Origin: a virus
Taxonomy: Duplodnaviria > Caudoviricetes
Virus record (IMG/VR): IMGVR_UViG_3300042321_002898
Span: 1 to 52,400 of that record
Strand: one strand, 5' to 3'
Length of the DNA: 52,400 nucleotides
Positions within the stretch are counted from its first letter, which is position 1, and each line of letters begins with the position of its first letter. Below the pieces are notes generated by a model. That model made no database searches, was not told where the DNA came from, and was given only the letters and a program-made list of their open reading frames with translations. Positions 25,669-46,400 of this stretch are shown here, one piece after another. A program made the translations under genes and the position numbers.

Positions 25669-25865
25669 AACAAATGATCGATCGAATCGTCGGCTGGCTC
25701 GGCAGGGCCAGTGAGAGTCCGAGACTGCATGCCGCGGGATTCCGCTTCTGCCATGAGCAGTCTCGGTGGATGCTGGAAGACCGGGTCTTTCCGACTCGCC
25801 ACTCGGCCATGGAACACCTGCGTGACCTCACGGTCAGGCAGGCACTGCGGAGGATGGTGTCATGA
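25665..25865 (+). CDS. Hypothetical protein
   Basis: GGAGG RBS and ATGA overlaps. Confidence 0.55.
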   Translation: MKQMIDRIVGWLGRASESPRLHAAGFRFCHEQSRWMLEDRVFPTRHSAMEHLRDLTVRQALRRMVS

Positions 25866-26053
25866 TGCGGGGATTCAGTCTCAACGCCGTGCTCGCGGCC
25901 CTCTGCCTGTTCTGGGCGGCCGCCGTGTCAATCGCGATCCTGCATCTCGGATCTCGCCACCGTCCAGAACCCGATCTCAGTCTCTGTCCGCTGTGCAGCA
26001 GGCCTGTGCCTCCGTCGCAGACAGAGTGGCAGCTTCATCCAGAGACTCCATGA
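25862..26053 (+). CDS. Small membrane protein with CxxC
   Basis: N-terminal hydrophobic helix and CPLC. Confidence 0.55.
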   Translation: MMRGFSLNAVLAALCLFWAAAVSIAILHLGSRHRPEPDLSLCPLCSRPVPPSQTEWQLHPETP

Positions 26054-26595
26054 ACTGCCAGATCGGATCACTGCCTCGGCACCAGTATGTCTGGGTCGAC
26101 TCGAAGTTCACCCACGAGAATCCGTGCGGCTTCGTGCCCGCCGTGTGGTTTGGTCTCGTCTCGATCCCGGGTCGCATGTGGGGCTGCAACGTCATGTTCG
26201 AGTCTGGTGCCGTCTACCGGTCGGTGCCTCCCCATGCCCTGGCATTTTCTTCGACCCCGCATCTGGACTGGCGTCCTGATGACGCGCAGCTGTGGGACTG
26301 CTACGGATACGACTGGCACGCGACCGAGTATACCTATCTCCGCGGAATGCAGTGTGATGCTCTCATCAAGAACAGCGAGCATCTCGGCGCCTATCTCTTC
26401 ACGGCGGCGCCGATCGGAGACGGATTCTCCGATGCTCCTGAGCAGGCAAAGGAGTTCATGTTCATCCGACTCTACAACAACAGACTCACGATCCAGCCCA
26501 CGAACCGGGTGCTGTTTGAGGATCGCAGTTTCACCGATGCGTCAAACGGAGTTCCGCGACTTCGTCTGCAGACAGAGACCTATTCCTGTGAGTGA
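26050..26595 (+). CDS. Hypothetical phage protein (181 aa)
   Basis: MNCQIGSLPRHQYVWV...SGAVYRSVP...QLWDC...QPTNRV; ATGA overlap. Confidence 0.65.
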   Translation: MNCQIGSLPRHQYVWVDSKFTHENPCGFVPAVWFGLVSIPGRMWGCNVMFESGAVYRSVPPHALAFSSTPHLDWRPDDAQLWDCYGYDWHATEYTYLRGMQCDALIKNSEHLGAYLFTAAPIGDGFSDAPEQAKEFMFIRLYNNRLTIQPTNRVLFEDRSFTDASNGVPRLRLQTETYSCE

Positions 26596-26813: not shown

Positions 26814-26851
26814 TTTACTTGGCAGCCAGCCACGATAATCTTCACACCGTC
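26814..26851 (+). promoter_or_regulatory. Repeated phage promoter
   Basis: TTTACT-16(tggcagccagccacga)-TAATCT-10 nt-ATG. Confidence 0.7.
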
Positions 26852-27328
26852 ATGAGCCCACATCTTAGACCCACCATCGACGAATACGCGATGCTCCTTG
26901 CCTCCGCCGCTGCCCTCCGTTCCGAGGATCCCAGTCGCAAGGTCGGAGCCGTTGCGCTCGACCATGAGAACCGCGTCATTGCCACAGCCTACAACGGACT
27001 CCCATCTGGATGGGACGTCGCCGACGACTGGTGGCAGAACAACGAGCAGCGCCGCAAGTTTGTCGTGCACGCCGAGTCCAATCTTTGCAGCCTGACTCAC
27101 CGAGGCGCAGTCAGGACCGTTGCCTGCACGACGATCCCGTGCGGTCCCTGCGCGCTCAATCTCATCGCGCACGGCGTGAAGCGCGTCGTCTACGGTCTGA
27201 CCTATCCGCGCGACGTCGCCGGCATGGAGATCCTCGACGAATACGGCGTCGAACTGATCCACATGCCACTCATTCACATCAAGAGCTACATTGCTCGCCT
27301 CGCCGATTCCCATGAACTCCCAGGTTGA
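26852..27328 (+). CDS. dCMP deaminase
   Basis: RSEDPSRKVGA, AYNGLPSG, VHAESN and PCGPC zinc-deaminase motifs. Confidence 0.9.
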   Translation: MSPHLRPTIDEYAMLLASAAALRSEDPSRKVGAVALDHENRVIATAYNGLPSGWDVADDWWQNNEQRRKFVVHAESNLCSLTHRGAVRTVACTTIPCGPCALNLIAHGVKRVVYGLTYPRDVAGMEILDEYGVELIHMPLIHIKSYIARLADSHELPG

Positions 27329-28475
27329 TCACACGTCACGAGGCCACTCGCGCATCAGTCCGTCAAGGCTGAAGCCGCTGCAGATCTGCCCCGGCTACGA
27401 GTCCGACGACACGCCGTCTGCGGCAGCCGCTCGCGGAACCACGCTGCACGAGGTCATGGACACCGGCAAGATTCCTGCCACGCTGCCAGACGAAGACCGC
27501 GAGGTCGCAGAACAGACGCTCGCCCTGCTTGCCGATGCCGAGAGTCAGTCACCCTATGAGCCCCTCAAGGAGGTCGAGCTCGACTTTCGACCCCTCAAGT
27601 TCCGTGACTTCGACAAGGGGCACGCCGACCGCGTGATCGTGCTCGAGGCCGATGCCGACCATGAGCCCGTGTCCGTCGAGCTGATCGACTTCAAATTTGG
27701 AAGATGGGAAGTCGACCACGTGTCTGAGAACATCCAGTTTCGCGCCTACGCCCTCGGTCTGTTCATCTTGTTTCCGACCATCGAGAAGATCCGAGTCCGC
27801 CTGATTCAGCCGGCCCTGAAGGTCGACGACACGCATCTCTTCACCCGCAAGAAGGACTACGAGGTCATCGTGTCGCAGGTCGGAGCAATTGTTCGTCGCC
27901 GCCACCGGTGGCTGGAGACACAGGACGAGTCGATGCTCCGTCCGCATCCAGACATCTGCGGCTTCTGTGCCCGCCAGGCCAGCTGCTCGGCGTGGCAGAG
28001 CTATATGGTCAAGCTCGCCAACGACGCAGACCTGTTTGGCCACGAGATCGCGCCTCTCACGAGTCTCGAGTCGCCAGAGACCGCAGATCCTGAGGAGGTC
28101 GTCAGGGCGTTTCGCTGGGTCAAGCCCATGGAGGACTATCTCAAGAAGTTCAAGCGCTTTGTGCTCGCAGTCCACGACGCGGGTCGTCTCTCCGAGGGAG
28201 TCACGATCGTCGAGAAATCTGGCGACACCTCGATCGTCGATCCCATTGCCGCGGCAAAACTCTTGGAGTCTGAATTTGGCGTCACGTTTGACGAGTTCTT
28301 GTCGGCATGTGATGTCTCGGTCACAAAGATCAAGCAGCTTGTCGGCCAACACGCAAAGACCGGAGAAAAGGGCGGCATGCAGTCGCTCGCGGTCGACCGG
28401 CTCCACGAGACCGGACTAATCCAGCACGGCGCCAGAGTGCGCTATGCACAACTCAGCAGGGGGAAAAAATCATGA
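27312..28475 (+). CDS. PD-(D/E)XK exonuclease (Cas4/DUF2800-like)
   Basis: HSRISPS..CPG, GTTLHE, GHAD, IDFKFG, QFRAYALG and CGFC...C. Confidence 0.85.
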   Translation: MNSQVDHTSRGHSRISPSRLKPLQICPGYESDDTPSAAAARGTTLHEVMDTGKIPATLPDEDREVAEQTLALLADAESQSPYEPLKEVELDFRPLKFRDFDKGHADRVIVLEADADHEPVSVELIDFKFGRWEVDHVSENIQFRAYALGLFILFPTIEKIRVRLIQPALKVDDTHLFTRKKDYEVIVSQVGAIVRRRHRWLETQDESMLRPHPDICGFCARQASCSAWQSYMVKLANDADLFGHEIAPLTSLESPETADPEEVVRAFRWVKPMEDYLKKFKRFVLAVHDAGRLSEGVTIVEKSGDTSIVDPIAAAKLLESEFGVTFDEFLSACDVSVTKIKQLVGQHAKTGEKGGMQSLAVDRLHETGLIQHGARVRYAQLSRGKKS

Positions 28476-28753
28476 GCAGAGAAGAGGCAATGCAAAAATT
28501 TCACGAGGTGCTGCACGAGATGCTGCCAGAACTGGGAGTCATCACCGAGGACACCGACATGCTCGACGACCTCGGTCTGCTCGATCTCGACCTCATCGAG
28601 GTGCAGCTCATGCTCGAGGAAAAATTTTCGATCCAGCTCGACGACGCGGACACTGATGCCATTGGCATCGGCAACTACCGAGTCGGCGACTGGCTCGACA
28701 GGATCATGACGATCCGAACACAGCAAGAACAACAAACCAAGAAAACCAAATAA
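28472..28753 (+). CDS. Acyl-carrier-protein-like protein lacking the phosphopantetheine serine
   Basis: Acidic 93 aa; ITEDTDMLDDLGLLDLDLIEVQLMLEEKFSIQLDD aligns with ACP [20 protein letters not shown]. Confidence 0.75.
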   Translation: MSREEAMQKFHEVLHEMLPELGVITEDTDMLDDLGLLDLDLIEVQLMLEEKFSIQLDDADTDAIGIGNYRVGDWLDRIMTIRTQQEQQTKKTK

Positions 28754-29763: not shown

Positions 29764-30477
29764 ATGACACCCGCGCTGGCAGACCGCGGCCAAAACGTCT
29801 GCCCCACTTTCATGCTTCTTCCGCATCTTCCATTTCATGTCCACCGTGTCCTCGTGACCGACTGCGAGTTCAAGAAGAACCGCCAGCCGATCGGGGTCAT
29901 CTACAGGTTCCTCGCGAACCTCACCGACGTCGCGACGATTCCCCGTCTCGACGTCACCAATGTCATCATCGGGGGACCGACGACCAGGTCTGAGCCATGG
30001 ATCTGGCGGGCCGCCGCCGAGAATCCGGCCGTCTGCGTCTCTGTCGAGGAGACCTCCGACGCCGGCGCGACTTCTCTCGAGGCCGAGGCCCGCAAGGCCT
30101 GGCAGTCGATGGCCGAAGAGTTTCAGCGCCGCGGACACTGGATGTCGCTCATTGGACTCCATGAGGACATCGTCATGCGGGCCGCCGAGCCGTTCCATCT
30201 GCGCGCCATCGAGATCCGCACGATGCATGACGACATGCTTGCTCGCATGTTCGCGACCGGCTCTGCCGAGATCGCCAGAGTCGCGTCGATGCTGCACTCG
30301 ATCGAAGAAAAACAGCAGGACCGCGAGCCAGAATTCAAGAGCACGCTTCAGCGCTTCATGTGGCCCATCGAGGACGAGATTCCAGACTGGGCCCAGAGCA
30401 GATATGACGAGGCACTTGCCGGAGGCTACACCGTCCTGCAGAGCCGCTTCGCGCCACAGGAGGAGATGAGCGAATGA
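29764..30477 (+). CDS. Hypothetical protein, possibly a degenerate 5'-3' exonuclease domain
   Basis: QPIGVIYRFLANL resembles Pol I/FEN 'P.navyGF..mL'; overlaps the PolA start; start codon uncertain. Confidence 0.45.
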   Translation: MTPALADRGQNVCPTFMLLPHLPFHVHRVLVTDCEFKKNRQPIGVIYRFLANLTDVATIPRLDVTNVIIGGPTTRSEPWIWRAAAENPAVCVSVEETSDAGATSLEAEARKAWQSMAEEFQRRGHWMSLIGLHEDIVMRAAEPFHLRAIEIRTMHDDMLARMFATGSAEIARVASMLHSIEEKQQDREPEFKSTLQRFMWPIEDEIPDWAQSRYDEALAGGYTVLQSRFAPQEEMSE

Positions 30478-32243
30478 CTCGAGACCACGTCGCCGTCGAC
30501 TTTGAGAGCAGCTTCTTTCCCAAGAAGAGGATCGGGCTGCGCGACATGGGTGTCGACCAGTATCTCCGGCATCCCGACGTCGAGATCTATCTCGTGGCAG
30601 TCCATGCTGAGGAGGGCTCGTTTGTCGGCCATCCATCAGAGTTTGACTGGGAGTCGATCAATGACCGAACCTGGGTCAGCCACAACGCCGCATTCGACTG
30701 GCGCGTCTGGCGACGCCATCAGGAACTCCACCCAGAGGTCGGAAATGTTCGTCCCGCGGAATGGCACTGCACGGCAAATCTGTCCTGCTGGCTCGGTCAT
30801 CCCAGAGATCTCAAGAAGGCCTGCATGGCGATGTTCAACGTCGACGTGTCGAAGGATGCCCGCAAGAAGATGGAGAACAAGACCTACCGAGAACTGCGGG
30901 CGAGTCCCGACTGGCGAGAGGTTGTCGAGTATGCCGAGCGCGACGCCGAGTGGTGCTGGAAGATCTGGGAGTCCCACGCGCATCTGTGGCCAGACGCCGA
31001 GAAGAAGATCAGCCTTATGACCACCCTGCAGTGCCTGCGTGGACTTCCCGCCGATCGCGAGTATCTCGACCGGTCGATCCAGACGCTCGACCGCGCCTGC
31101 TGGGAGGCCCGTAACCTTCTGCCCTGGGCCAACGGAAAGGCCGAGGAGCGTGCCGTTCTCTCTCCGATTGCCGTCGCCGAGGAGTGTCGCAAGCTCGGAA
31201 TCACGCCACCCAAGTCGCTCGCTGAGGACTCGACCGACTGTCAGCGATGGGAGGACGAGCATCCCGAGATCCCGTGGGTGCGCGAGATGCGCCGGTATCG
31301 CAAGGCCAATCTTCTCATGACCAAGCTCATGACGATGCGTGACCGCATCCGCCCAGACGGCCGGATCGACTTCAGTCAGAAATACTGCGGAGCCCACACC
31401 AAGCGCACCAGCGGAGACCAGGGTTTCAATGTCCAGGGATTTCAGCGAGATCCGTTCGAGGGAGTCGACATGCGCCGCGCCATCCACGCGATGCACGGCG
31501 GCCAGATCGTGATTGCCGACCTGGCACAGATCGAACCGCGGACCCTTGCCTGGCTCGTCAACGATGAGCGCAAGATCGAGATGATCAACCGTGGCATCTC
31601 GGTCTACCAGGTCCACGCGATTCAGACACTCAACTGGAAGGGCGCCAGCCTGAAGAAGGAGGATCCCAACCTCTATGCGATGTGCAAGATGCGTGTCCTT
31701 GGTCTTTCTTACGGCTGCGGCGCCGAGCGCTTTGTCGATTACTGCTGGAACCAGTATGGCCACCGAATCTCTCTCAGAGACGCCAAGCTGCAGGTCGGCG
31801 ACTTCCGCCGCAAGGAGCGACTCATCGTGGATTTCTGGAACCGCATCCAGCGCCGGTTCGAGACGTCCGTTGGCCAGGACCTCGAGATCGACCTGCCGTC
31901 ATGGAACACGATGCGCTACCGCGACGTCCGCCGCGACAAGGGGCAGCTCACCGCCACCCTGGCGACCGGCCGGGTCAACCGCATGTGGGGAAGTCTTGGA
32001 GTGGAAAACATCATCCAGGCGACGGCCCGCGACTGCTTTTATGAGAAGCTTCTCAAGATCGAGGAGGCCGGAATCCCGACTCTCTTCGCCGTGCACGACG
32101 AGGTCGTGACCGACGAGATTCCCGCCGACCAAGTCGACGACGCCCTCGAGACAGTCAGAGAGATCATGGCCCAGGAATGTGAATGGATGCCAGGAATCGC
32201 TCTCGATTCGGAGGCCCACGCGAGCCCGCACTATCTCAAATGA
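30474..32243 (+). CDS. polA: DNA polymerase family A with 3'-5' exonuclease
   Basis: ExoI VDFES, ExoII HNAAFD, ExoIII YAERD; motif A ADLAQIEPR, motif B KMRVLGLSYG, motif C VHDEVV. Confidence 0.93.
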   Translation: MTRDHVAVDFESSFFPKKRIGLRDMGVDQYLRHPDVEIYLVAVHAEEGSFVGHPSEFDWESINDRTWVSHNAAFDWRVWRRHQELHPEVGNVRPAEWHCTANLSCWLGHPRDLKKACMAMFNVDVSKDARKKMENKTYRELRASPDWREVVEYAERDAEWCWKIWESHAHLWPDAEKKISLMTTLQCLRGLPADREYLDRSIQTLDRACWEARNLLPWANGKAEERAVLSPIAVAEECRKLGITPPKSLAEDSTDCQRWEDEHPEIPWVREMRRYRKANLLMTKLMTMRDRIRPDGRIDFSQKYCGAHTKRTSGDQGFNVQGFQRDPFEGVDMRRAIHAMHGGQIVIADLAQIEPRTLAWLVNDERKIEMINRGISVYQVHAIQTLNWKGASLKKEDPNLYAMCKMRVLGLSYGCGAERFVDYCWNQYGHRISLRDAKLQVGDFRRKERLIVDFWNRIQRRFETSVGQDLEIDLPSWNTMRYRDVRRDKGQLTATLATGRVNRMWGSLGVENIIQATARDCFYEKLLKIEEAGIPTLFAVHDEVVTDEIPADQVDDALETVREIMAQECEWMPGIALDSEAHASPHYLK

Positions 32244-32422
32244 ACCCAAACCACAACACCAAGAAGTCACCCGACATCGATGAGGTCAACATGCGCGACA
32301 TGCTTGTCATGTTCTGCGCCGCCGGAATCCTGTCGGGCAAGATCAGCGTCAACCCAACCAAGGCCATTGATCTCGCGATCGAGGCGGCCGACCACTACCT
32401 GGAAAAAAGGGCCCAGTCATGA
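32240..32422 (+). CDS. Hypothetical protein (60 aa)
   Basis: MRDMLVMFCAAGILS...AIEAADHYLEKR, a common small phage-protein pattern; ATGA overlaps. Confidence 0.6.
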   Translation: MNPNHNTKKSPDIDEVNMRDMLVMFCAAGILSGKISVNPTKAIDLAIEAADHYLEKRAQS

Positions 32423-32910
32423 CCGAACCAAGATCACTCCCAGATCCGCTGCCGCACTTCACCGTCATGGCCGTGCCCTATGATCCGATCACCCGAATGG
32501 TCGCGATGATGTGGCGCGGCGACCGCGTCCGCTCTGCCAAGAACTGCCTGTCGACCCCGGCGGGACTTCTTGAGCACGGCGAACCGTTCGAGGAGGGTCT
32601 TCTTCGTGAGCTCCGCGAGGAGATGGCGATCGAGCCAGACAACTGCTTCCGTGTCGAGTTTCAGACGATCTATCGCAATGACAATGGAGATGGCCTGGAC
32701 TGGGTGATCGGCATATGGTCAGTCGCCGTCCGTGATCTCCGGCTCGTCGCCCGCAACGTCGAGCCAGACAAGCACGACTACCTGGTCTTCATGCATCTCG
32801 ACGATCTCGCCTCACCCAATCCCATGCTTGACGGAAAGCCGGCGATGTTCGCGAGCTCTCTTCAGCCAGTTCTCAGGACCGTCGCCAAGCGCCTGATCCA
32901 GACCCTATGA
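32419..32910 (+). CDS. Nudix hydrolase
   Basis: Nudix box AGLLEHGEPFEEGLLRELREEMAI and EPDKH. Confidence 0.88.
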   Translation: MTEPRSLPDPLPHFTVMAVPYDPITRMVAMMWRGDRVRSAKNCLSTPAGLLEHGEPFEEGLLRELREEMAIEPDNCFRVEFQTIYRNDNGDGLDWVIGIWSVAVRDLRLVARNVEPDKHDYLVFMHLDDLASPNPMLDGKPAMFASSLQPVLRTVAKRLIQTL

Positions 32911-33593
32911 AGCGCCACCCGATCATTGTCCTCGAGGGACCCGATGCCGTCGGTAAGACGACGTGGGGACGCGAATACATGCGTCAGACCGGGGCCCGCT
33001 ACCTGCACCTGCCGCTGCGCAAGAGAATGTATGAGCACCAGGCGATGTCCCTTGCCCTGGCAGTCCACTGGTCAATCGAGAAGCCCGTCCTGATCGACAG
33101 ACACTGGCCTTCGGAGCAGCTGTATGCGGCCGCCTACCGTGGCGGATCTCCGCTCGTTGCCGAGGCGGCCGTGCTCGACCAGATCATGTCGTGCCTCGGG
33201 GTCACTTACGTCGTCTGCCTGCTCTCGAGCCCCGAACGGATGTTCGAGTCGCTGCGCCGTTCTCGAAAAGAGCGTCATGAGATGTATGAGCCAGACGACC
33301 GCTACCGCGACCTGGTCTGCGGCTATTTCGACTGGTGGCACGGAACCGACCACACCGCGACCAATCTCGGCCACTGCGAGACACTACGTGGATTCGGCAA
33401 CGCCCGTCCCCTGATGGCGCACCTCTATGACTACGAACAGATGGGACAGACGTCTCATGACATGTCCATGCACGTCCAGGACGTTCAGGACATCGCTTCT
33501 GCCATGCTCGAGGCCACCGACTTCAACGTGCAGGCCGAGGACCTGGTCCGCGACCGCATGCTTCTTCTCAACGAACTGAATCTCATCAAATGA
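32907..33593 (+). CDS. dNMP (thymidylate-like) kinase
   Basis: IVLEGPDAVGKTT P-loop and LIDRHWPSEQLY. Confidence 0.85.
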   Translation: MKRHPIIVLEGPDAVGKTTWGREYMRQTGARYLHLPLRKRMYEHQAMSLALAVHWSIEKPVLIDRHWPSEQLYAAAYRGGSPLVAEAAVLDQIMSCLGVTYVVCLLSSPERMFESLRRSRKERHEMYEPDDRYRDLVCGYFDWWHGTDHTATNLGHCETLRGFGNARPLMAHLYDYEQMGQTSHDMSMHVQDVQDIASAMLEATDFNVQAEDLVRDRMLLLNELNLIK

Positions 33594-34447
33594 ACAACGA
33601 CAAGATCCCAAAGACCGCCACCGAGGCGTGGCTTCAGCTCATCGCAGACGTGTCTCTCAACGGCCGTCGATACAGTCCACGCGGCATGCCGGTCCGCGAG
33701 ATCATCAACAACACGGTGGCAGTCGACATGGCCTTTCCGGTCGTTTTGACAAAGAAGCGCCGGCTGAGCTACCGCTTCATGGCGGCCGAGGCCTGGTGGA
33801 TTCTTGCCGGCCGCCGCGACGTCGAATCGATCGGACGATACTGCTCGGCGATCAAGAAGTTTTCCGACGACGGGGAGACATTCTTTGGGGCCTACGGACC
33901 CAAGATCGCGCGGCAGGTCGAATACATCGTGAACACGCTCAAGAGAGACCGCGACACGCGCCAGGCAGTTCTCACGATATGGAGAGAGAATCCGCCGCAC
34001 ACGAAGGACGTGCCCTGCACGGTGGCAGTCCAGTGGCTGATCCGCGACGGACTGCTCCACTGCGTCGACACGATGCGTTCAAGTGACGTCTGGCTCGGGT
34101 TTCCGTATGATGTCTTCAACTTCTCGATGCTGTCGTGGCACATTCTCGAGGCGCTGCGCGACGAGGGCATGGACCTCCAGCTCGGCACCCTGCATCTCAA
34201 CGCCGGATCTCATCACATCTATGAGAAGGATCTCGAGACCCTTTCCGGTTGGCACAACCACGACTGGTCAGAGGGACATGACTTTGATGCCGTCGCCGGC
34301 CACCGGATCGAGCATGGCTTTGTTTACGGCTACCTCGCCGCGATTATCGGTGAGTATTCTGTCACCCCAAATCTCAACGAGCCTCATGGATTTTTCAAGT
34401 CTTTTGAGGATCGTCTCCTGAACACAAACAACCAACCCACAAAATAA
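33590..34447 (+). CDS. Thymidylate-synthase-family enzyme, probably dCMP hydroxymethylase/methylase
   Basis: GAYGP, DTRQAV, catalytic PCT, MRSSDVWLGFPYDVFNF and GSHHIYE; Asp at the site that is Asn in dUMP-specific thymidylate synthases. Confidence 0.8.
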   Translation: MNNDKIPKTATEAWLQLIADVSLNGRRYSPRGMPVREIINNTVAVDMAFPVVLTKKRRLSYRFMAAEAWWILAGRRDVESIGRYCSAIKKFSDDGETFFGAYGPKIARQVEYIVNTLKRDRDTRQAVLTIWRENPPHTKDVPCTVAVQWLIRDGLLHCVDTMRSSDVWLGFPYDVFNFSMLSWHILEALRDEGMDLQLGTLHLNAGSHHIYEKDLETLSGWHNHDWSEGHDFDAVAGHRIEHGFVYGYLAAIIGEYSVTPNLNEPHGFFKSFEDRLLNTNNQPTK

Positions 34448-34453
34448 AACGTC

Positions 34454-35311
34454 ATGGCAAACAAAAGAGGAAAAACCGTAGACACGACATTCTTGTCGCT
34501 CGACACCGCCGAGAAACGCGGATTTCTGCACCGAGATTACATCGCCCACTGTCTGAGGTGGAGCCACATCATGCGCCGCCTGTCCGAGGGCAAGGCGTAT
34601 GCCGAGGCGACCATTCTCGACGTCGGCTGCGGCCGTGAGCTCCCGATGGCAAAGACGCTCTACAGCTCTCGCTACATCCCGAAGCGCTACATTGGGATCG
34701 ATGTCGGACCGATCCTCGACGAGGCCATCCAGGTGTTCCACTCGGGCAAGTTCCCGCTCGAGGTCTACGAGAAGACTGACATCTGCGAGGCGACCGACGA
34801 GTTCGCGAACCAGGTCGACATCATTGTGTGCCTCGAGGTCCTTGAGCATGTCGAACCAAGCCACATGCTCCGCATGCTCGACTCGTTCAGAGAGATGCTG
34901 AAGAAGGGCGGCCGGGCGTTCATCTCGACCCCCTGCTGGGACGTCAAGACCTGCGCCGACAACCACGTCAACGAGATGCGCCACGAGACTCTCGGGGCCG
35001 TCTTCGAGCGCGAGGGCTGGATGATCCAGGCCGTCCACGGCACCTTCGCCTCAATCAAGGACTACAAGGAAGAATTCACGCCCGCCCAGCGCGAAATCTT
35101 CGAGCGTCTTCGTGGCTACTACGACACCAACTACCTGGCCACGATCTTTGCCCCGATGTTTCCGCGGCAGTCTCGCAACTGCATCTGGGAGATTGTCGAC
35201 TCTGGGAAGAATCCCGAGCTCGTGGAGTCCTACGAGTGCCAGTATCCCGAGATCGCGGAGGTCCCGGAGCCCTGGGGGTCGTCAGAAAACTGGAAAGAAC
35301 TCGCTCGGTGA
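34454..35311 (+). CDS. Class I SAM-dependent methyltransferase (small-molecule type, not a DNA MTase)
   Basis: ILDVGCG, YIGIDV, DIIVCLEVLEHV and LKKGGRAFISTP; no DPPY/NPPY or C5-MTase motif set. Confidence 0.85.
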   Translation: MANKRGKTVDTTFLSLDTAEKRGFLHRDYIAHCLRWSHIMRRLSEGKAYAEATILDVGCGRELPMAKTLYSSRYIPKRYIGIDVGPILDEAIQVFHSGKFPLEVYEKTDICEATDEFANQVDIIVCLEVLEHVEPSHMLRMLDSFREMLKKGGRAFISTPCWDVKTCADNHVNEMRHETLGAVFEREGWMIQAVHGTFASIKDYKEEFTPAQREIFERLRGYYDTNYLATIFAPMFPRQSRNCIWEIVDSGKNPELVESYECQYPEIAEVPEPWGSSENWKELAR

Positions 35312-35320
35312 AGTCGGCAT

Positions 35321-35359
35321 TTCACAGCGACAGCCAGCCAACCTACAATCGAGCACGTC
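35321..35359 (+). promoter_or_regulatory. Repeated phage promoter
   Basis: TTCACA-17(gcgacagccagccaacc)-TACAAT-10 nt-ATG. Confidence 0.7.
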
Positions 35360-35845
35360 ATGAGCCTCGCCCACACCACCGTCATCTTCCTGCAGAACCC
35401 ATGGTTTCCGCCTGAGACAGACCCCGCGATCCTGCAGTCCTACATGCACGACGTCCAATTCCGCCGCGAGCTTCTCGCGACGACGATGACCGGACGCCGT
35501 CTCCTGAGTCTGTTTGGTCCGATGTATCACGACATCTGGTGGGACAACGCCCACCCCAGGCCAGTCCTCGGCGACCACCGCGGAGTCGGAGATCCCGACC
35601 ATGAGCACATGCTGCACGTGATTCTCGAGAGGCGCCCGAAGACCATCGGGCTTCTTGGGAGGCGCGCGGCCGCCGGTATGGACCGGCTGTCTCGGGAGGT
35701 GCCGCTGTTCTTTCAGGGCGACCGCATGCTCGGGGCTCGGATTGTCACGGCCCGTCATCCCAACGCCATGGGCTGCACGACAGAGGAGCTCGAGAGGTTC
35801 AGCAACATCGTCATCAACCGTGCCATCGGCTGTGTCGGCGTATGA
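35360..35845 (+). CDS. Uracil-DNA-glycosylase-superfamily protein (divergent)
   Basis: IFLQNP, TGRRL, WDNA, RPKTIGLLGRRA and RHPNA follow UDG-fold motif order. Confidence 0.6.
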   Translation: MSLAHTTVIFLQNPWFPPETDPAILQSYMHDVQFRRELLATTMTGRRLLSLFGPMYHDIWWDNAHPRPVLGDHRGVGDPDHEHMLHVILERRPKTIGLLGRRAAAGMDRLSREVPLFFQGDRMLGARIVTARHPNAMGCTTEELERFSNIVINRAIGCVGV

Positions 35846-37956
35846 AGTTTCCGTGCATCACGAATCTCGTCACGCAGGACGTGGAGATGCTCAGGCCGTG
35901 GGAGTTTGTTCCCGAGGTGCCAAAGTTCAAGACCAAGCGGCTCTACAAGGAATGGCTCGCGCAGGACACGACCGAGCACTGCCTCTATTGCGGCTTCACG
36001 GGGCTCATCCCGAGCCTGCGACTGCACAAGGACGCAAATCCGGTCCATTCCATCCACGCCCTGGTGGCCGACTACGATTCCGAGATTGACATCTCCGACC
36101 TCGAGTCGATGCTGGGCAGGTGCGATGCCACTCCGCCGACCTGGGCCCACAGGACACCATCCGGGGGAGCCAGACTGGTGTGGATCCTGGACCGCCCGGT
36201 TCTTGTCGCGTCGGGATCTGTCCTGATCAAGACGCTCAGGGCGGCGGCCAAGTCGCTCGACCTGCGTGGCCTCCTGCCCGGCTTCGACTTTGACTCGGCC
36301 TTTCTCAACCCGACCATCTATTACGACGTCGGTCGCGACTGGATGGAGATCGATGGGGCCCCTCCTCTCGATGCCGCGGTCGTCGAGGGCTGGATGCTGA
36401 AGTCGTCTGAGTCTGTCAAGTGGACCGGCGACATGATTCCGCTCGACGTGATCGAGAACGAGCTCCATCAGCGCTTTCCTGGCCGCTGGAACGGACCGTT
36501 TGTCGAGGGATCTCGAGGAGTGCGGTTCTGGGACCCGATGGCAGACAACCCGACTGCCGCGATCGTCAGGCCGACTGGGATGCAGTGCTTCACCGGCTCA
36601 TCTGGCTTCGTGCCGTGGTCAAAGATCTTTGGAAGCCGCTTCGTCGAACAGTTCACGTCGAGCAGACTCAGCGAGGTGATCGACGGGGTCTGGTATGACG
36701 GCAAGAACTACTGGTATCAGTCGGCAGACGGCAAGTGGGAGGCGCGCGCCGAGAGGGAGATGGGCCGGTGGCTCAAGGTCGAGCAGGGACTGGCGGCTGA
36801 AAAAGAAAAGAACGCGACCTTCTCCGAGGTCGAGCACGCGCTCTACACGGTCGACCAGCACAGGCGCGTCGTGGGAGCGGCCCCGTTCGTCTACCTGCCG
36901 CCGGGCATGATCGAATTCATGGGCAAGCGAGTCCTCAACACGGCCAGGGTCATGCCGCTCAGGCCGACCGAATCGGTCGCCGACTGGGGAGACCGCTTTC
37001 CGTGGCTCAGTGGATTTCTTGAGAAGTTCTTTGACAACGACGAGCAGCTGCTCTATTTTCTGTCGTGGCTCAAGAGGTTCTACTGCTCGGCGCTCGACGG
37101 GGCCCCGAAGCAGGGACAGGCCCTGTTCATCGCCGGTGAGCCCGGGCAGGGCAAGACCCTGCTGTCCAACAGGATCGTCTCTGGTCTGGTCGGAGGTCAC
37201 CAGGACGCGACCCAGTTTCTTCTGGGAGCATCCTCGTTCAACAAGGAGCTGTTCCATCACGGCCTGTGGTCAGTCGACGACGCGACGCCCGGCGACAGCT
37301 CGGCAGACCACAAAAAGTTCTCGAGCCTGCTCAAGAAGGTCACGGCCAACACGACCTTTGAATACCATGCCAAGTTCCAGGATTCGGTCATGGTCGAGTG
37401 GACTGGCCGCGTGATCATCACCGGAAACCTTGACGCCGAGTCGCTCCGCATCCTGCCTGATCTCGACACGTCGATCCTCGACAAGATCATGCTCTTCAGG
37501 GCCGCCACCGTCGACAAGATGTTTCCAGAGAGGCACATCCTCCAGGACACGATCACGAGAGAGCTTCCATATCTCGCGGCGTGGCTGGTCGAGTTTGACG
37601 TGCCCGAGGAATGCATCTCTGACCAGGCGCGCTACGGGATCAGGGGATACCACCATCCAGAGCTGCGGCTCGCGGCCGGTGAGAGCACGGACGCGGCAGT
37701 CCTCGACGAGGTGCTGTCGGCCTTCATGCTCGAGAGATCTCGCAACGGCGAGACCGACGCCTGGTCTGGAACCGCGACAGCTCTCATGCAGGACATCTTT
37801 CTCTATGACAGTCTGCGCAATATCGTCGGTCGCAACTCGGCGAGGTGGTTCGGCATCCAGCTCGGCAAGCTCGAGGCCCAGGGCCGCGGGGTGGTCTCGG
37901 TTCGAATCGGGGGCAAGAAGTCCTACACGATCTTCCCCGAGGGGGCCAAAAAGTAG
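35842..37956 (+). CDS. Primase-helicase (N-terminal prim-pol-like, C-terminal SF3 helicase)
   Basis: VADYD and TPSGGAR primase-like motifs; GEPGQGKT, SVDD and IITGN SF3 motifs A/B/C. Confidence 0.8.
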   Translation: MKFPCITNLVTQDVEMLRPWEFVPEVPKFKTKRLYKEWLAQDTTEHCLYCGFTGLIPSLRLHKDANPVHSIHALVADYDSEIDISDLESMLGRCDATPPTWAHRTPSGGARLVWILDRPVLVASGSVLIKTLRAAAKSLDLRGLLPGFDFDSAFLNPTIYYDVGRDWMEIDGAPPLDAAVVEGWMLKSSESVKWTGDMIPLDVIENELHQRFPGRWNGPFVEGSRGVRFWDPMADNPTAAIVRPTGMQCFTGSSGFVPWSKIFGSRFVEQFTSSRLSEVIDGVWYDGKNYWYQSADGKWEARAEREMGRWLKVEQGLAAEKEKNATFSEVEHALYTVDQHRRVVGAAPFVYLPPGMIEFMGKRVLNTARVMPLRPTESVADWGDRFPWLSGFLEKFFDNDEQLLYFLSWLKRFYCSALDGAPKQGQALFIAGEPGQGKTLLSNRIVSGLVGGHQDATQFLLGASSFNKELFHHGLWSVDDATPGDSSADHKKFSSLLKKVTANTTFEYHAKFQDSVMVEWTGRVIITGNLDAESLRILPDLDTSILDKIMLFRAATVDKMFPERHILQDTITRELPYLAAWLVEFDVPEECISDQARYGIRGYHHPELRLAAGESTDAAVLDEVLSAFMLERSRNGETDAWSGTATALMQDIFLYDSLRNIVGRNSARWFGIQLGKLEAQGRGVVSVRIGGKKSYTIFPEGAKK

Positions 37957-40276: not shown

Positions 40277-40405
40277 ATGGACCCCGACATCCTCATCATC
40301 CTGCGAGGCCTCATCCAGATCGCCTGGAACTTCTGGCCAGCCCTGGTCTTCATCGTCCTGGGGCTGGTCGTGGTCCTGGCCTGGGAACGGGCAGACCGAG
40401 ACTAG
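40277..40405 (+). CDS. Small membrane protein (42 aa)
   Basis: MDPDILIILRGLIQIAWNFWPALVFIVLGLVVVLAWERADRD; its stop overlaps the stop of the convergent giant gene. Confidence 0.6.
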   Translation: MDPDILIILRGLIQIAWNFWPALVFIVLGLVVVLAWERADRD

Positions 40406-43400
40406 CCGCCGCGGATCACATCGCGCATCGTCTCGCGGATGGTCTGCTTCCACTCGTCCTCGGTCGAGAAGTCCTTCCTGGTGATGCCCATGCGATCTCG
40501 CAGATAGGCGATGGTCTTGCGCTTGTCCTCGGAATAGAGACTGAAGTCAAAGTTGCCGTCGTCATCGGTGTAGCGAGGGTTGTAGCCGGGCATGAATCTG
40601 GCCCCAGACAGAGGACCCTGGTCAGTGTCTGGTCCCGTGACTCCGGCAAGACTCTGGTCATCCTGGGATGATCCGGGCATGAATCGAGCGTTTGGTCGGG
40701 CACTCGAGGGTGCCACAAAGACTTCGCCTTCTCCAAAAGCTCCCTCCATGTGCTTTCCGGGCATGTGGGGTTGCTCGGATCGATTGATCCCGAGTTCCTC
40801 GGCAATGTCGTCGATGGCCCCGTCCTCGATCACAGGAAACTTGCCCACCGGACTGATCCTGAGCACCTCGGGTTCAAGACCTCGGCGACTCTCGGCGTTG
40901 GCATAGGCGACCATGTCGGCCATGTCGTAAAACTGCGTGAATGACTTTGCCTGTCGAGTCAACTGAGATCTTTTTTCATCTAGTCCGACTCCTCGATAGA
41001 GTTCGTCCATGCCGCGTTCTTGCAGATTTTCTTGAGACATTGCCAGGAGTCTCTTGAAATACGGGTTGTCTTTCAGCGTCACAAAGACAGACGACAGGGC
41101 CTTGCGGCTATCGACTCCCTTGGAGTGCATGGCAAGTCTCTGCAGACCCGCGATCATCGCGGCCGCGTCGGCATCAGGTTCTTTTGAGGTGACGACATCG
41201 CCGACACGCCACCGGTTCTTGCCAATCTTGACGGGTCTTGGAATCTTGAACGGACGGACTCCCTCGATGTCGATCAGACGGCTGGTATCCGCCGGCATGA
41301 ACTTGGCCCCCGGTCCCGTGCCGCCCGTGCCCTCCTCAGAGTCGGGATTGTTTTCTAGAAACTCACTGATCTTGTCGTAGAACGCATCGAGCATGTCCGA
41401 GGGCTCGCGATACTCGCCCGGGTCGAGCATGAAATAGCCGACTGAGTCCTCCATGCCGGGCTCGACGTAGATGTTGACCCTGGTTCCTCCAAGACCAGAG
41501 GCGATCGGCTCAAACGTGTATTTGCCGAGCGACGTCGTCTCGTCGTTCATCAGGGCCTCGGCGGCCTCGTTGATCATGGCCGTCGTGATCGGCTTGGTCT
41601 TGGTCCCAGGTGCCGTCGGGGCAGACGTGGCTCCAAGAGTCGACAGGGCCTCGTAGATGGCCGCCTCGAGATCCATGGGTTCCATGTTCTGCGATCCCTG
41701 GATCGGGATGATGCCGAACACGTTGCCGTCCTTGTCGTAGCCGGTGATCGCGACAGACCCGACCTCGGTGACGCCCTTTGCAAACTTCTTGCCGCCGACC
41801 TCGACGACCTCGATGTCCGGGTCCATGAGCTGGGCGGCCGCCTGCATCGTGAAGTCTTCCTGTTCTGTTAAGAGCGGCTTTTCATTCTTTGCCGTCGGCT
41901 TGTTCAGAAACTTTGCGGCCTCTCGGATGACGTATGCAAACGGTCCGATCGCGAAATTCTTGTCGTCCTTGATGAACTGATACATTCCGTCCTCCGCGAC
42001 CTGCTTGACAATCTTGACCTCGTCTCCCTGGCCGTTCGTGAGAACCACGGACTTCCATTTGCCATCCTTGGTGGCCTGCGCGTCGTCAAGAGTCACTCCC
42101 AGATTGTCGACAAATTTCATCAGTGCGTCGGAGTCGGCAAGAATCACGGGATCCGCCTCATTCTCCGAGGGTTTCAGATACGGGTGGCTGGGATTCGCGG
42201 CATCGAAGATCGCCAGGGCCGTCTCAGAGACAGACGGAAGGACTCCGTTGTCGGCCCAGTATTGCATGATGGCCGTCTTGTTGCCGGGCGCCCACTCGGT
42301 CACAAACGGATCGCCCTGCTCGTCCTCGTATGGATTTGTCACGGCCGTGCCCGAGTTTGTCGTGAAATACACGTGGTTGGTCCCGCCGATCTCGCCCTCT
42401 TCAAACGGTCCGACCATGGCGGCCGCCTCGGCGACGGTCATGAGGGTGTCGTCTGCCTTGGCATATCCGACTGCCGGAGAATCCAGGGTCAGCCCCTCTT
42501 CCTCGACTTCTTCGACCATGTCGGCCGCCTTGCGCTTCTCAAGCTTGTCGGATGCCCACTTGCCGACGTCGTAGAGATACTTGCCGAGGGCCTCGACGTC
42601 GTTGGGGCTAAGTGCGTCAATGATCTTTGCCTTGGCGAGGCCCTCAGAATTTCCGAGAAGAAGCGACTCCACGAACTCAGCCGAGGCGTCGATGTCGGAC
42701 GGCGGAAGATTCACGAGGTTGGTGTCAACCCACTCCTGATCCTGCAGATTCTCAAGCAGTTGATTGACTCTGTTTCTCGCGGCCCACGGAAGATTCTCAA
42801 GAAGATTGCTGATTCCCTCACTCTGCGCGGGCATCTGCGGCTTCATCTCGGTCTTCAGATTCTGCTGCATCCAGTCCATGACGTTGCCGTAGCCGGCCTG
42901 TTTGGCGCGCATCATCGCGTAGTCGGACAGCCAGTCAACGGCGTCGCGCTTCTTGCCGCCAGGAATCTGGGCCGTGGTGAGAAGATTGCCCTCAGACACT
43001 GAGTCTCCGGCATAGACCTTGAGAGTCGCGACCTTGCCAGATCCACCGGCATTGAGAACCGTGACATCGCCGAGCTTCAGGCCGTTGAATCCGGCGGTCA
43101 TGAGAGTCTCAACAAACTTGTTGAGGTTCGTCGGAGTCGAAACATTGGTCTTTGGCTTGAATGTGCTGCCCATGAACCAGTTCTGGTCTGCAATGGGCTT
43201 TGGCTTCGGAAGCTTGATCTCGACATTCGGGACATTAGACAAAGACGGCTTCTTGCCGGTCACCCGCGGATCCTTGCCCTCGTTCAGGAGCATGCGAAAG
43301 AGTTTCGTGGCGTCTGTCTGCGCGATTCCGATGTCTCCAAAGTGGTCCTGCAGGATCAGACCGATGTGGGCATTCTGGTCCTTCTTGATGGCCTTCCAGG

Positions 43401-46400
43401 CGTCACTGCCCCGTCCCAGATTTCGGTGGATTCCCTCGGCCGCGTTGGCAATGTTCTCATACGGGTTCTCTCGACGGACGCCGCTTGATGACTTGCGATA
43501 ATAACTGCCAACGAGATCCTTGAGCACCTCAATGAACTGATCGGGATCAAGGGCCACGTCCTTGAAGTTCTCTGGCAGCTGTGCCTTGACGCTCTCTTCA
43601 AGATCCTGGGTGAGAGGCGCGTCGGCTCGCATGTCGGCAAACCAGGCGTCGGCCAGTTTTCCCATGGTGCCACTGACGAGCCCGCGCAGTTCACGGGGAT
43701 TTCCCACGTTGGCCTTGAAGTCGAGCATCTTGGCGATCCAGCCGTATCCCTCGGCTCCCATGTAGTATTTCTTGAGCTTGTTGAAGACCGTGTTGGTGTT
43801 GTGCTGCAGGTCGTAGGCACGGTCGATCTCCTGGAACATGGCGCTGTAGGCACCCGGGTCGCGAAACTCGTTGGTCTCAATGACCTGCATGCGGCCGGTC
43901 TCTGGATCGGTCGCGACGGCGCGGACTCGCTCGGTGGAATATGTCGGATCTGACATCTGGGCGAGATGGGCCGCGATGTCGCCCCATGGGTTTCCGCCGT
44001 AGCTCGACGACCAGTCGCCGCGACGATACAGCTGCTCGGCAAAGCGCGCCACGTCGGCGATGCCCATGCCCAGTTTCTTGCGGGCATTCTCCATCGCGAC
44101 AAAAGAAGCCTTATAGCCCTCGCTCTCTCCCTTGTAGCGGCGTGGCCCCTTTTCTTTCTTGAGATCTGGCATGCCCGCTCCCTGGATCGCATACTGGCGC
44201 ATGTATTCCTGATAGAATTCAGACTCGGCCAGGTCGGTCGGCTGTCTGCGCGGAATGGCATGGCGAAGTTCGGCCGCGATCGCAAAATGCAGTGCCTTCT
44301 GGATCTTGCTGTGGAGAGACGGGATGAGCGTCTGCTTGGCCTCATCGAGGGCGTCCTGGTATTTCTCGGCGCGGACTCCGGCATAGCGCCCGGTCGGGTC
44401 TGCCGAGGGAGCATACATGGTGGCCTCGCCACCGAACTTGCCCATGCTCCATCCAGTCGGCGGCGTCGTGATCATGGCGTTGAGCATGTAGAAGTCGGCC
44501 ATGGTCTTCTTGGGATCGTCGGGAAGCGACGTGTAGCGGATGCCGGGAAGGAACCGAGGCATGGCGCCGCCGACAATGTCGTTTTCCACCTCGAGGTCCT
44601 GCGACTGGTCGAGACGGAGCGCGCCATCGGGTCTCTCTGGGAAGAAATTGATTTTCATCCTGCCGTAGTCGATCGGCATCTTGGCGGCGTTGCTGATCTG
44701 CATCTGGTTGATGCGGTCCATGCGCGCCGACATGATGATCCGGTCGGCAGACTCTTTTCCGCGCTGGGCCGGGAGCTTGGTTCTTGACGGATTGGAGGCC
44801 TCGGTCTCCTTTGAGAACATGTTGAAGAAGTCGTTGATGCGGTTCTTCTTTTGCATTGCGATGTCGGGGTCGATGTCGAGGTTGGTCTGCCCGGCGAGTC
44901 CGCGATTGTGATTGTCGAGCACCTTCATGACGTCGGCCCAGAACTTAGAGGTGCTGCGTCCCCAAAGATTGAGGTTCTCGGGCTTCTTCTGGGCCCACAG
45001 GTTCATTTTGTCAAACATGCGGCTGACCGATGCCGTGACGGCGAGCCAGTTGCCCTGCTTGGTGAATCGAAACCCAATCGGCACAACGTCGCGAATCTTT
45101 GGGGCGAGGGCCCGATATCTTCCCTTCTTGAGGGAGGGCTGGTATTCCATAAGGATGCGAGTCCCGTCACGACGCTGCAAGACCTCGCTGAACGCAATCA
45201 GATTTTTCTTGACATACGGGGTGACCAGCGTGTTGGGCAGCGCCATGATGGCCTCGACCTGGGACGGACTGAGCGTCCCGGTATAGTTGCCATTCTCGTC
45301 GCCCCTCATCCGGCCCTCGAAGCCGTCCTCTGGCGCGTTGTCGATCGCGTCCTTGATCATCTGGTCGCGCTGGCGAGCCCGCGCCTGGATCTCTTTGTTC
45401 TGGAGAATCTTGGGACTGCCGTCGGGGTTGCGGGCGATGCGGTTGTCAATGGACGCGCTCGATCCCTCCGGAAATGCCGAGAGATCAATGGCCGGGTCGA
45501 TCGGCGGGAGCACGTTGCCATTCTCGTCGACAAGCTGCCCGTTGACGAGGCGGTATTCCCCGATCGCGGCCGAGTTGGCCACGGGGCTGTCCGGTATCAC
45601 GATCTGTGACAGCGCGTTTCCGTCCTTGTCGCGAATGTCGAGCACCGTTTCCTTGTCCCAGATGACGTCATCCTTGTAGACCTCCTGCAGGGCCCGGTTG
45701 GTCATGAGCTCGGTGAGGCTGATCTCGATGTCATCCTGCAGCGAGTCGCCCACAAACGTCATCGTGTCGGTATATTCAAGAAGCTGCCGCTTGTATTGAC
45801 GCATCATTGCAAGAACTTCAGGAATCGCGACGTTGCTTCCAAAGATTACTGAGCGGACATCGCCCTGCGAGTCAAGCTCGACTCCGACGGCCTCCAGGGC
45901 CTGGCGAAGTCGCCCGAGCATCGAGTTCTGGTTCGCGACCAGCAGCCGGTCGACGACGGCCTGTCCGGGCGAATCCAGGCCCTCGCGCATCGTCTGGTAG
46001 CCACCCTCCGAGATCGCCGCAATTTCTGACATGATTTCTTCACGAATGTATTCGCGCATCTTGTCAGTGTCTGGAAATCCTCTCTTGAATCCTTCCACTC
46101 CACCGACTGTCCGACTGCCATACAGCGGCACAAACACGGAATCGAGCACTTCATCGGTGATCACTCCAGGTGTCACGGGCATCTTGCGGACAGTCCCGTC
46201 GGGCATGAACTGATCGGCATATCTTCCAAATAAAAACTGCCGTGCCGGCTGCTGCATGTCCTGAACTTCTTTGAACTTCGACAGCGCGTGGTTCATCTCG
46301 TGCGACAGGGCATGCCTCAGTCCCGCGGGATTGTTCATGACATAGCCCGCGTTGATCATGACCGTCGGAGACGTGACGTTGGCCGGCCTAAGGTGCGGCG

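Follow-up and report, generated by a model that had tools for sequence, protein, structure and literature searches.

A methyltransferase linked to Asp-type thymidylate synthase homologues in phages, and a candidate route to 5-methoxymethylcytosine

Here we describe a five-gene cluster in the phage record IMGVR_UViG_3300042321_002898, a 52.4-kb IMG/VR virus record (its positions 1 to 52,400 are referred to as the window), in which the gene for a thymidylate synthase (TS) homologue with Asp at the cytosine-specificity position is followed by the gene for a class-I S-adenosylmethionine (SAM) dependent methyltransferase (MTase). Comparison of viral loci carrying these genes shows that the METHYLTRANSFERASE is coupled to predicted dCMP hydroxymethylases and that the MTase and the phage 5-hydroxymethylcytosine (5hmC) carbamoyltransferase are ALTERNATIVES.

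Layout of the cluster and identity of the TS homologue

The phage is of the tailed type, with terminase and tail fibre genes present, and the record is estimated by CheckV to be 84% complete. Near-identical sequences were found in Logan contigs from 24 sequencing runs, of which 23 are labelled lake water metagenome and one metagenome; no RNA run was among those listed. The cluster (Table 1) comprises five plus-strand open reading frames (ORFs) for a Nudix hydrolase, a P-loop kinase, the TS homologue, the MTase and a small protein with a predicted uracil-DNA glycosylase (UDG) fold, bounded by a family-A DNA polymerase (PolA) upstream and a DUF5906 primase downstream; all five were recovered as contiguous genes, as an earlier reading of the sequence alone (the sequence-only reading) had described them. 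Overlaps of 4 nt are present at three of the cluster's five junctions (Nudix/kinase, kinase/TS and UDG-like/primase), the spacer between the TS and MTase genes is 6 nt, as also read earlier, and that between the MTase and UDG-like genes is 48 nt. Since the identical five-gene order recurs in seven further viral contigs, with MTase identities of 74-99%, the arrangement is not a matter of chance.

Table 1. Genes and motifs of the cluster and its context (positions in the window; aa, amino acids)
Feature	Position	Strand	Basis
dCMP/dCTP-family deaminase, in-frame ATG at 26852	26819..27328	+	PF00383 5.8e-15; phrog_174 2.4e-36
Family-A DNA polymerase (PolA; context)	30474..32243	+	PF00476 3.6e-16; phrog_17 3.8e-59
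Nudix hydrolase, proposed dCTP/dCDP pyrophosphatase, 163 aa	32419..32910	+	PF00293 1e-8; phrog_1198 8.5e-10
P-loop kinase, proposed (modified) dNMP kinase, 228 aa	32907..33593	+	AAA_33 25.9 bits; phrog_761 4.3e-7
Asp-type TS homologue, proposed dCMP hydroxymethylase, 285 aa	33590..34447	+	PF00303 7.8e-21
D140-V-P-C143 of the TS homologue: water-activating Asp and catalytic Cys	34007..34018	+	alignment to T4 gp42 D145/C148 and E. coli L143/C146
P-Y-D174 of the TS homologue: cytosine-specificity Asp (D174 codon 34109-34111)	34103..34111	+	alignment to E. coli N177 / T4 D179
Class-I SAM MTase, phage-specific, proposed 5-hydroxymethyl O-methyltransferase, 285 aa	34454..35311	+	Methyltransf_23 3e-15; UbiG TIGR01983 6e-12
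E128-x-x-E131-H132 motif of the MTase, HEN1/UbiG-type	34835..34849	+	invariant in 36 family members
Minimal UDG-superfamily protein, 161 aa	35360..35845	+	family profile, predicted fold
Primase (context; downstream boundary of the cluster)	35842..37956	+	DUF5906 1.8e-7; phrog_1829 2.4e-8

The TS homologue matches PF00303 with 74.8 bits (cut-off 24.3) and, in an alignment of 83 rows, retains C143 (E. coli C146) and the equivalents of Arg166, Ser167, Asp169, Tyr94 and Glu58. Its D174 aligns with both E. coli N177 and T4 gp42 D179, and the P-Y-D assignment of the sequence-only reading was thus correct. The position of T4 Asp145, the dCMP hydroxymethylase residue that binds the water for hydroxylation of the exocyclic methylene intermediate (PMC6841964), is D140 in the window protein, Leu in E. 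coli and Asn in PaMx74 and Bosa, which make 5-methylcytosine (5mC). For comparison we used E. coli ThyA, T4 gp42 (5hmC), SPO1 gp29 and an M6-like enzyme (both 5-hydroxymethyluracil, 5hmU), and PaMx74 ThyA together with the enzyme of the Xp12-genus phage Bosa (both 5mC). At E. coli positions 143/147/165 the window protein and T4 gp42 have D/T/M, PaMx74 and Bosa N/P/L, and ThyA L/H/Q. A maximum-likelihood tree of 36 rows separates the proven hydroxymethylases (T4 gp42, SPO1 gp29 and the M6-like enzyme) and the window family from E. coli ThyA, two canonical TSs, PaMx74 and Bosa with a split support of 100/98, and a quick tree of the 83 rows gave the same split with support 97; the phylogeny suggested earlier thereby groups the protein with the hydroxymethylases. 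The best PDB match is the CMP 5-hydroxymethylase MilA (4e-23), true TSs reaching 4e-12, and the best score with the NCBIfam TS equivalogs is 60.9, to be compared with a cut-off of 174.55, the other six models likewise scoring below their cut-offs. Its residues and its place in the tree mark the TS homologue as a hydroxymethylase-lineage enzyme for cytosine, and it would be expected to act as a dCMP hydroxymethylase. Loss of the TS C-terminus was also considered as a hydroxymethylase marker and was dropped, given that a gp42-like TS (locus L054) reaches position 262 of the 266 in the Pfam profile.

The 100/98 split of the window family from PaMx74 and Bosa, and D/T/M in place of N/P/L, the water-activating Asp included, argue against an Xp12-like genome with 5-methyl-dC, in which the TS homologue would be a dCMP methylase, the deaminase would make dTTP from 5m-dCTP, and the MTase would add nothing to C5 or modify a second position. 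The Xp12/PaMx74 pathway does resemble the window in having an Asp177 TS, an upstream nucleotide pyrophosphatase and a deaminase (downstream in Xp12/PaMx74), while its TSs form a separate clade and are similar to true TSs over most of their length. PaMx74 also encodes a dihydrofolate reductase (DHFR) near thyA, whereas neither DHFR nor ThyX was found in the window, which is a weak point as the record is 84% complete. Moreover, window-type TS homologues are found beside carbamoyltransferases that need a hydroxymethyl group (L116/L182 and L185, see below). On the other side, Asp177 alone is enough to make a dCMP methylase of a TS (Liu and Santi 1992, quoted by later papers), five of seven Asp-type TS homologues encoded in cis with deaminases made 5m-dCMP, in-cis deaminases can be 5mC-selective (bioRxiv 10.1101/2024.12.05.627091), and the hosts of the two cultured relatives discussed next are of the Xanthomonadaceae type, like that of Xp12. 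On balance we regard a 5-methyl-dC genome as quite unlikely.

The cultured relatives are Stenotrophomonas phage AXL3 (locus L001, MT536174.2) and Pseudoxanthomonas phage PW916, both with the gene order MTase, MazG-like NTP pyrophosphatase, kinase, TS homologue and dCMP deaminase. Between AXL3 and the window, the TS homologues are 51% identical with P-Y-D kept, and the MTases are homologous at 1e-32. AXL3 gp27-gp31 have been published as an ordinary dCMP to dTMP to dTDP pathway (PMC7504290), and the Pfam and NCBIfam family names ("thymidylate synthase") point the same way, i.e. to a dTMP supply by dCMP deaminase, thymidylate synthase and thymidylate kinase with an unrelated MTase. Asp for Asn at position 177 and Asp for Leu at 143, TS equivalog scores far below their cut-offs, and the presence of ThyX (gp50) in AXL3 all speak against this, as does AXL3 DNA itself, which among 37 restriction enzymes tested yielded to only two, those with A/T-only sites, and resisted all 35 with G/C in the site (PMC7504290). 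A dTMP supply therefore appears extremely improbable; from its sequence, gp28 would be an Asp-type enzyme of the hydroxymethylase lineage and the published annotation of gp27-gp31 is probably wrong. In the likewise cultured Pelagibacter phage HTVC200P (L084), gp14 is a window-type Asp TS homologue, and its annotated 10.6-kb neighbourhood is without MTase, MazG, kinase and deaminase genes; the DNA of this phage may contain 5hmC made with the aid of host enzymes.

Linkage and family of the methyltransferase

For the linkage counts we used 80 viral loci seeded with the MTase, 80 seeded with the window TS homologue and 79 seeded with a carbamoyltransferase alignment (a scan from a single carbamoyltransferase returned only itself and was repeated from the alignment). 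An Asp-type TS homologue is present in the flank of 71 of the 80 MTase-seeded loci, which bears out the linkage that the sequence-only reading had suggested searching for. Two more have a TS fragment at the locus edge (L072, 4e-16; L020, weak at 0.013), and six of the remaining seven are truncated shortly beyond the MTase, MazG or kinase gene. All 71 linked TS homologues have Asp177, and Asp143 (the T4 Asp145 position) is present in 69. They represent three lineages, i.e. the window/AXL3 type, a sister group of T4 gp42 and the "L037" type, and the putative dCTP-removing partner varies with the architecture: MazG/PRA-PH in most, Nudix in the window clade and a dUTPase-fold protein in the gp42-like group. 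In the reverse direction, the MTase was found in 52 of the 80 loci seeded with the window TS homologue.

The phage carbamoyltransferase converts 5hmC to 5-carbamoyloxymethylcytosine and co-occurs with TS, PRA-PH and deaminase domains in modified contigs (Yang et al. 2021, eLife, PMC8670742). Among the 79 carbamoyltransferase loci a TS homologue is present in 69, with both Asp143 and Asp177 in 67 of these, and the MTase in none. The carbamoyltransferase system shares with the window the Asp-type TS lineages, the MazG/PRA-PH, kinase and deaminase neighbours found around the MTase, and a slot for a decorating gene; the enzymes in this slot are unrelated, the carbamoyl group being taken from carbamoyl phosphate and ATP and the methyl group, as proposed, from SAM. 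In L116, a carbamoyltransferase (PF16861 + PF02543) occupies the MTase slot upstream of MazG-kinase-TS-deaminase with a TS 56% identical to that of the window, and in the tree the carbamoyltransferase-linked and MTase-linked TS homologues interleave in all three lineages. Given the lack of co-occurrence (0/79) and the shared TS lineages, we read this most simply as a competition of two unrelated enzymes for one hydroxymethyl group. These data support that the MTase behaves like a variable decorating enzyme of the hydroxymethylcytosine (hmC) pathway, which is the place that the sequence-only reading had assigned to it.

The MTase scores 56.8 with Methyltransf_23 (cut-off 27) and has an invariant motif I, D-V-G-C-G. 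At least 1,450 of 1,982 candidates proved homologous at E <= 0.001, and the nearest ESM Atlas clusters are 95-100% viral; in the collection of cultured/deposited phages (1e-10) the MTase is present in only five records, none of them PaMx74 or a Xanthomonas phage, and in this respect the window differs from Xp12/PaMx74. The only PDB matches of the family profile are PKMT2 (7.6e-6), bacterial Hen1 (1.8e-4), UbiG (3e-4) and plant HEN1 (3.5e-4). In addition to this weak but significant sequence similarity, the family shares the class-I fold with HEN1, bacterial Hen1 and UbiG, and E128, E131 and H132, invariant in the 36 family members, align with the E-x-x-E-H of bacterial Hen1 and UbiG after strand 4. 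The metal in HEN1, which positions the hydroxyl groups of the nucleotide destined for O-methylation, is coordinated by Glu796, Glu799, His800 and His860 (PMC10781085). N170-H171 of the MTase, located after strand 5, is invariant as well; the HEN1 alignment stops at residue 169. The family has invariant N- and C-terminal motifs of its own, its context is nucleotide metabolism rather than RNA repair or quinone synthesis, and its scores fall short of the curated cut-offs for both Hen1 (23.8 vs 340) and UbiG (45.3 vs 102.95). On these scores it belongs to neither family and would at most work like them. In structure comparisons, the AlphaFold2 (AF2) model (pLDDT 90) gave a flat list of neighbours with Z 15-19, among them ChlM (18.9), CmoM (18.5), UbiG (16.5) and HEN1 (16.5), i.e. 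small-molecule and tRNA-modifying class-I MTases.

One alternative that draws on these similarities is a genome with plain 5hm-dC, as in T4, in which the MTase acts outside the pathway, e.g. in Hen1-like 2'-O-methylation of RNA 3' ends or on tRNA, a protein or a metabolite, and is kept by synteny. The resemblance to Hen1 and to a tRNA MTase (CmoM, phrog_4752), the protein lysine MTase as best profile match, and a fold search that is not substrate-specific are all compatible with this, and the sister clade described below manages without the MTase. The alternative does not readily account for an MTase tied to Asp-type TS homologues of three lineages in differing genome architectures, nor for its strict exclusivity with the 5hmC carbamoyltransferase; a weaker point is that no RNA-repair partner (Pnkp-like kinase/ligase) was found among ten neighbour proteins of two loci. 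We consider it unlikely.

The MTase translation has no (D/N/S)-P-P-(Y/F/W) or P-C-Q motif and matches no DNA-MTase Pfam family at E <= 0.01, and together with its sequence relatives this supports assignment to the small-molecule/O-methyltransferase type rather than to the DNA amino- or C5-MTases; the sequence-only reading had likewise called it small-molecule-type. The same observations bear on a 5hm-dC pathway with methylation by the MTase at another atom of the base or nucleotide (e.g. N4 or N3), the product being a methylated hmC other than the methyl ether. The linkage evidence is equal for both and N-methyltransferases are present among the class-I fold neighbours, but the sequence relatives that share E-x-x-E-H are O-methyltransferases and exclusivity with an enzyme using the same hydroxyl is best explained by competition for that hydroxyl, making methylation of another atom very unlikely. 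The median isoelectric point is 5.9 for the MTase family and 8.6 for the UDG-fold family, and this acidity mildly favours a free nucleotide over DNA as the MTase substrate.

Some of the loci deviate from these arrangements. The L054 (549-8692), L068 and L072 loci belong to another phage type and have a plus-strand block with genes for a gp42-like TS, a dUTPase-fold protein, a DnaB-like helicase, an Enc34-type single-stranded DNA-binding protein, the MTase and a class-II-like ribonucleotide reductase. L193 and L259, both carbamoyltransferase-seeded, have a canonical TS (L/H/Q/N signature) and are exceptions to the pairing of carbamoyltransferase and hydroxymethylase. The window-type TS(Asp) modules of L111 (1733-4992) and L112 (1852-5030) contain three additional ORFs between the MazG-like and kinase genes, in the slot of the MTase or carbamoyltransferase elsewhere; two are without Pfam match and one is a pyridoxal phosphate-dependent enzyme (PALP, 1.7e-9), and these modules may represent a different hmC hypermodification. 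In L114 (3007-4902) a ThyX (PF02511) ORF beside an Asp-type TS homologue contains a LAGLIDADG domain, hence an intein or homing-endonuclease insertion is likely.

Partner enzymes and the UDG-fold protein

The Nudix protein scores 35.7 bits with its Pfam family (cut-off 21.1) and has an intact Nudix box, G-x5-E-x7-R-E-x2-E-E. Its gene lies directly upstream of kinase-TS, in the slot that is held by a MazG/PRA-PH-like NTP pyrophosphatase gene in relatives, and this position fits the dCTP-removing role suggested for it in the sequence-only reading; the substrate would accordingly be dCTP/dCDP. In some relatives a dUTPase-fold gene adjoins the TS homologue. The kinase has a P-loop, G-P-D-A-V-G-K-T, its AAA_33 score is below the cut-off of 27, phrog_761 is annotated "thymidylate kinase", and it is homologous to AXL3 gp29 (2e-12 to 5e-14 for members of the clade). 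It has no NCBIfam match and a PDB sequence search gave P-loop matches only. We also considered that it could be a 5-HMUDK-like DNA kinase, which is disfavoured by the Asp-type TS partner (aGPT-pyrophosphorylase was not searched for). DNA kinases of the 5-HMUDK type belong to thymidine hypermodification.

In relatives the deaminase gene is usually located directly 3' of the TS homologue, and in the window it lies 6 kb upstream. The sequence-only reading had placed a dCMP deaminase here for surplus dCMP; the gene is confirmed, with the start given then as an in-frame ATG within a slightly longer ORF (Table 1), whereas its role is less certain. A TS-linked deaminase preferred 5m-dCTP (bioRxiv 10.1101/2024.12.05.627091) and by analogy the window enzyme may act on a modified dCTP instead. 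Just upstream (25711-26595, plus strand) the C-terminal 175 aa of an ORF match phrog_3704 ("ferredoxin", 1e-25) and no Pfam family. Two other ORFs may be mentioned: one of 93 aa in the replication module (28472-28753, plus strand) with a weak acyl-carrier-protein match (phrog_5934, 3.8e-6) and no Pfam match, and a giant one of 2,772 aa on the minus strand (40402-48723) for which the one PHROG match is short (phrog_20946, function unknown, 4e-8).

Direct searches of Pfam, PHROG and NCBIfam with the 161-aa protein gave no match, and single-sequence and profile searches of PDB gave matches at chance level only (adenylate kinase, MepR). A profile search retrieved a family of 243 representatives of about 150 aa, and 16 of 51 aligned members match PF03167. 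Its AF2 model (pLDDT 94) has UdgX (3e-4, probability 1.00), family-4 UDG, TDG and MUG as top Foldseek matches, and VIA gave Z scores of 11.4 for UdgX (root mean square deviation 3.2 over 130 residues), 11.3 for T. maritima UDG and 10.5 for the UDG domain of phiLo PolA. The window protein has the motifs L-Q-N-P-W (motif A) and R-H-P-N-A (motif B), of which the Asn of motif A and the His of motif B are conserved. Motif A of MUG/TDG is G-I-N-P-G, i.e. of the Asn type. The family matches and the model thus establish the predicted UDG fold, and a role as glycosylase is putative. A UDG for uracil repair, either encoded in trans or joined to PolA, is common in phages with modified pyrimidines (NAR 2026, PMC13697223). 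The window protein shares with these the fold and the gene position beside replication genes, and it differs from them in being 161 aa only and in having Asn (Q-N-P) in motif A, where phiLo has Glu (L-L-V-G-E; PMC13697223).

In a sister clade (L099-L104) the order is polA-Nudix-kinase-TS-primase with neither MTase nor UDG-fold gene, and the TS homologue (at about 5960-6830 of each locus) is 54-60% identical to that of the window; the DNA of these phages presumably contains plain 5hmC, and they form a natural comparison set for absence of the MTase. Within the window clade the MTase and UDG-fold genes are present or absent together, and as both are missing from the sister clade they represent one insertion in this lineage. 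A member of the UDG-like family is encoded directly upstream of the MTase in L045 and three more elsewhere on MTase-bearing contigs. Hence, of the claim that a UDG-fold protein takes part in the pathway, the fold held up, and the gene is an accessory of this clade and L045 and not a general pathway member.

A candidate pathway and what it would mean

T4 removes dCTP with the gp56 dCTPase, makes 5hm-dCMP with the gp42 dCMP hydroxymethylase, phosphorylates it with the gp1 dNMP kinase and decorates the DNA with alpha- and beta-glucosyltransferases. The window would follow the same logic, i.e. removal of dCTP, hydroxymethylation of dCMP with equivalents of Asp179 and Asp145, phosphorylation, incorporation and decoration. 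The Nudix protein would convert dCTP/dCDP to dCMP, which keeps dCTP from the pool and feeds the TS homologue, and the latter would use dCMP, methylene-tetrahydrofolate and water to form 5-hydroxymethyl-dCMP. The P-loop kinase would phosphorylate the modified dNMP, host enzymes would complete the triphosphate, and PolA, which would have to accept the modified dNTP, would incorporate it. The MTase would methylate the oxygen of 5-CH2OH in a HEN1/UbiG-like and probably metal-assisted manner to give 5-methoxymethyl-dC, more likely on the free nucleotide than on DNA, and the deaminase would supply dUMP or dTTP precursors. The UDG-fold accessory, gained with the MTase, would most likely be a glycosylase associated with the replisome, there to excise uracil or the new base in its deaminated form. 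In contrast to T4, the window TS is of another lineage, nearer to the 5hmU synthases in the tree, the dCTPase candidate is a Nudix and not a dUTPase-fold protein, and the decorating candidate is a SAM MTase in place of a glycosyltransferase (the window was not searched specifically for glycosyltransferases).

The interpretation offered in the sequence-only reading is in this way supported in each of the elements that could be checked, with its product proposed from the putative activities. In our judgement there is about an even chance that the target of the MTase is the hmC nucleotide or base, whichever atom it modifies. The reading we prefer, that the cluster is a pre-replicative pathway to replace dC in the phage DNA, in which 5hm-dC is synthesized and then O-methylated to 5-methoxymethyl-dC, is possible, if somewhat short of evenly balanced. 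The widest form of the proposal is rather doubtful and put forward tentatively: 5-methoxymethylcytosine would be a natural base, fully replacing C in widespread aquatic and soil phages and made before replication by a hydroxymethylase and a HEN1/UbiG-related O-methyltransferase, with the UDG-fold enzyme of the window clade co-acquired for the deamination product.

Several points weigh against a methyl ether as the product. To our knowledge SAM-dependent O-methylation of 5hmC has no precedent, and the product chemistry is deduced for every member of the module. A flat list of structural neighbours cannot name the MTase substrate, the best PDB profile match, PKMT2, is a protein lysine N-methyltransferase, and H171 may be the fourth metal ligand, corresponding to HEN1 His860, by deduction only. 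Some of the deaminase-linked TS homologues that made 5m-dCMP could be of the window type. Shared ancestry of syntenic replication modules may account for part of the MTase-TS linkage and inflate the counts, and in one MTase locus (L076) the 1.2 kb that follow the kinase gene contain no TS homologue. Finally, as the MTase is missing in both the sister clade and HTVC200P, it is dispensable.

What was already known is the core of TS(Asp), pyrophosphatase and deaminase (MetaGPA papers) and the decoration of 5hmC; new is the MTase branch. In the literature searched, on dCMP hydroxymethylases and on MetaGPA, no such MTase was described, and there was no report of methoxymethylcytosine in phage DNA, in line with the sequence-only reading, which knew of no such base from characterised phages; supplementary tables, which lie outside that search, may list the MTase family (PMC8670742, bioRxiv 10.1101/2024.12.05.627091, PMC13229309). 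In a 2026 paper, the neighbours listed for phage 5mYOX genes include O-methyltransferase domains, for which no product is named.

Complete base replacement is a major route by which phages escape restriction and CRISPR, and earlier base chemistries have yielded enzymes for epigenome sequencing, i.e. glucosyltransferases, the 5hmC carbamoyltransferase and 5mC-selective deaminases. With AXL3 and PW916 in culture the present claim is cheap to test. If it is true, conversion of 5hmC to a stable methyl ether would add to the known DNA bases and provide a novel reagent for tagging 5hmC, and the O-methyltransferase would be the methyl counterpart of the glucosyl-, arabinosyl- and carbamoyltransferases. 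In thousands of viral contigs, genes that now bear the names "thymidylate synthase/kinase" and "UbiG-like methylase" would have to be annotated anew, and the pathway would explain the restriction resistance of AXL3 DNA and probably also that of many uncultured aquatic phages of ~40 kb.

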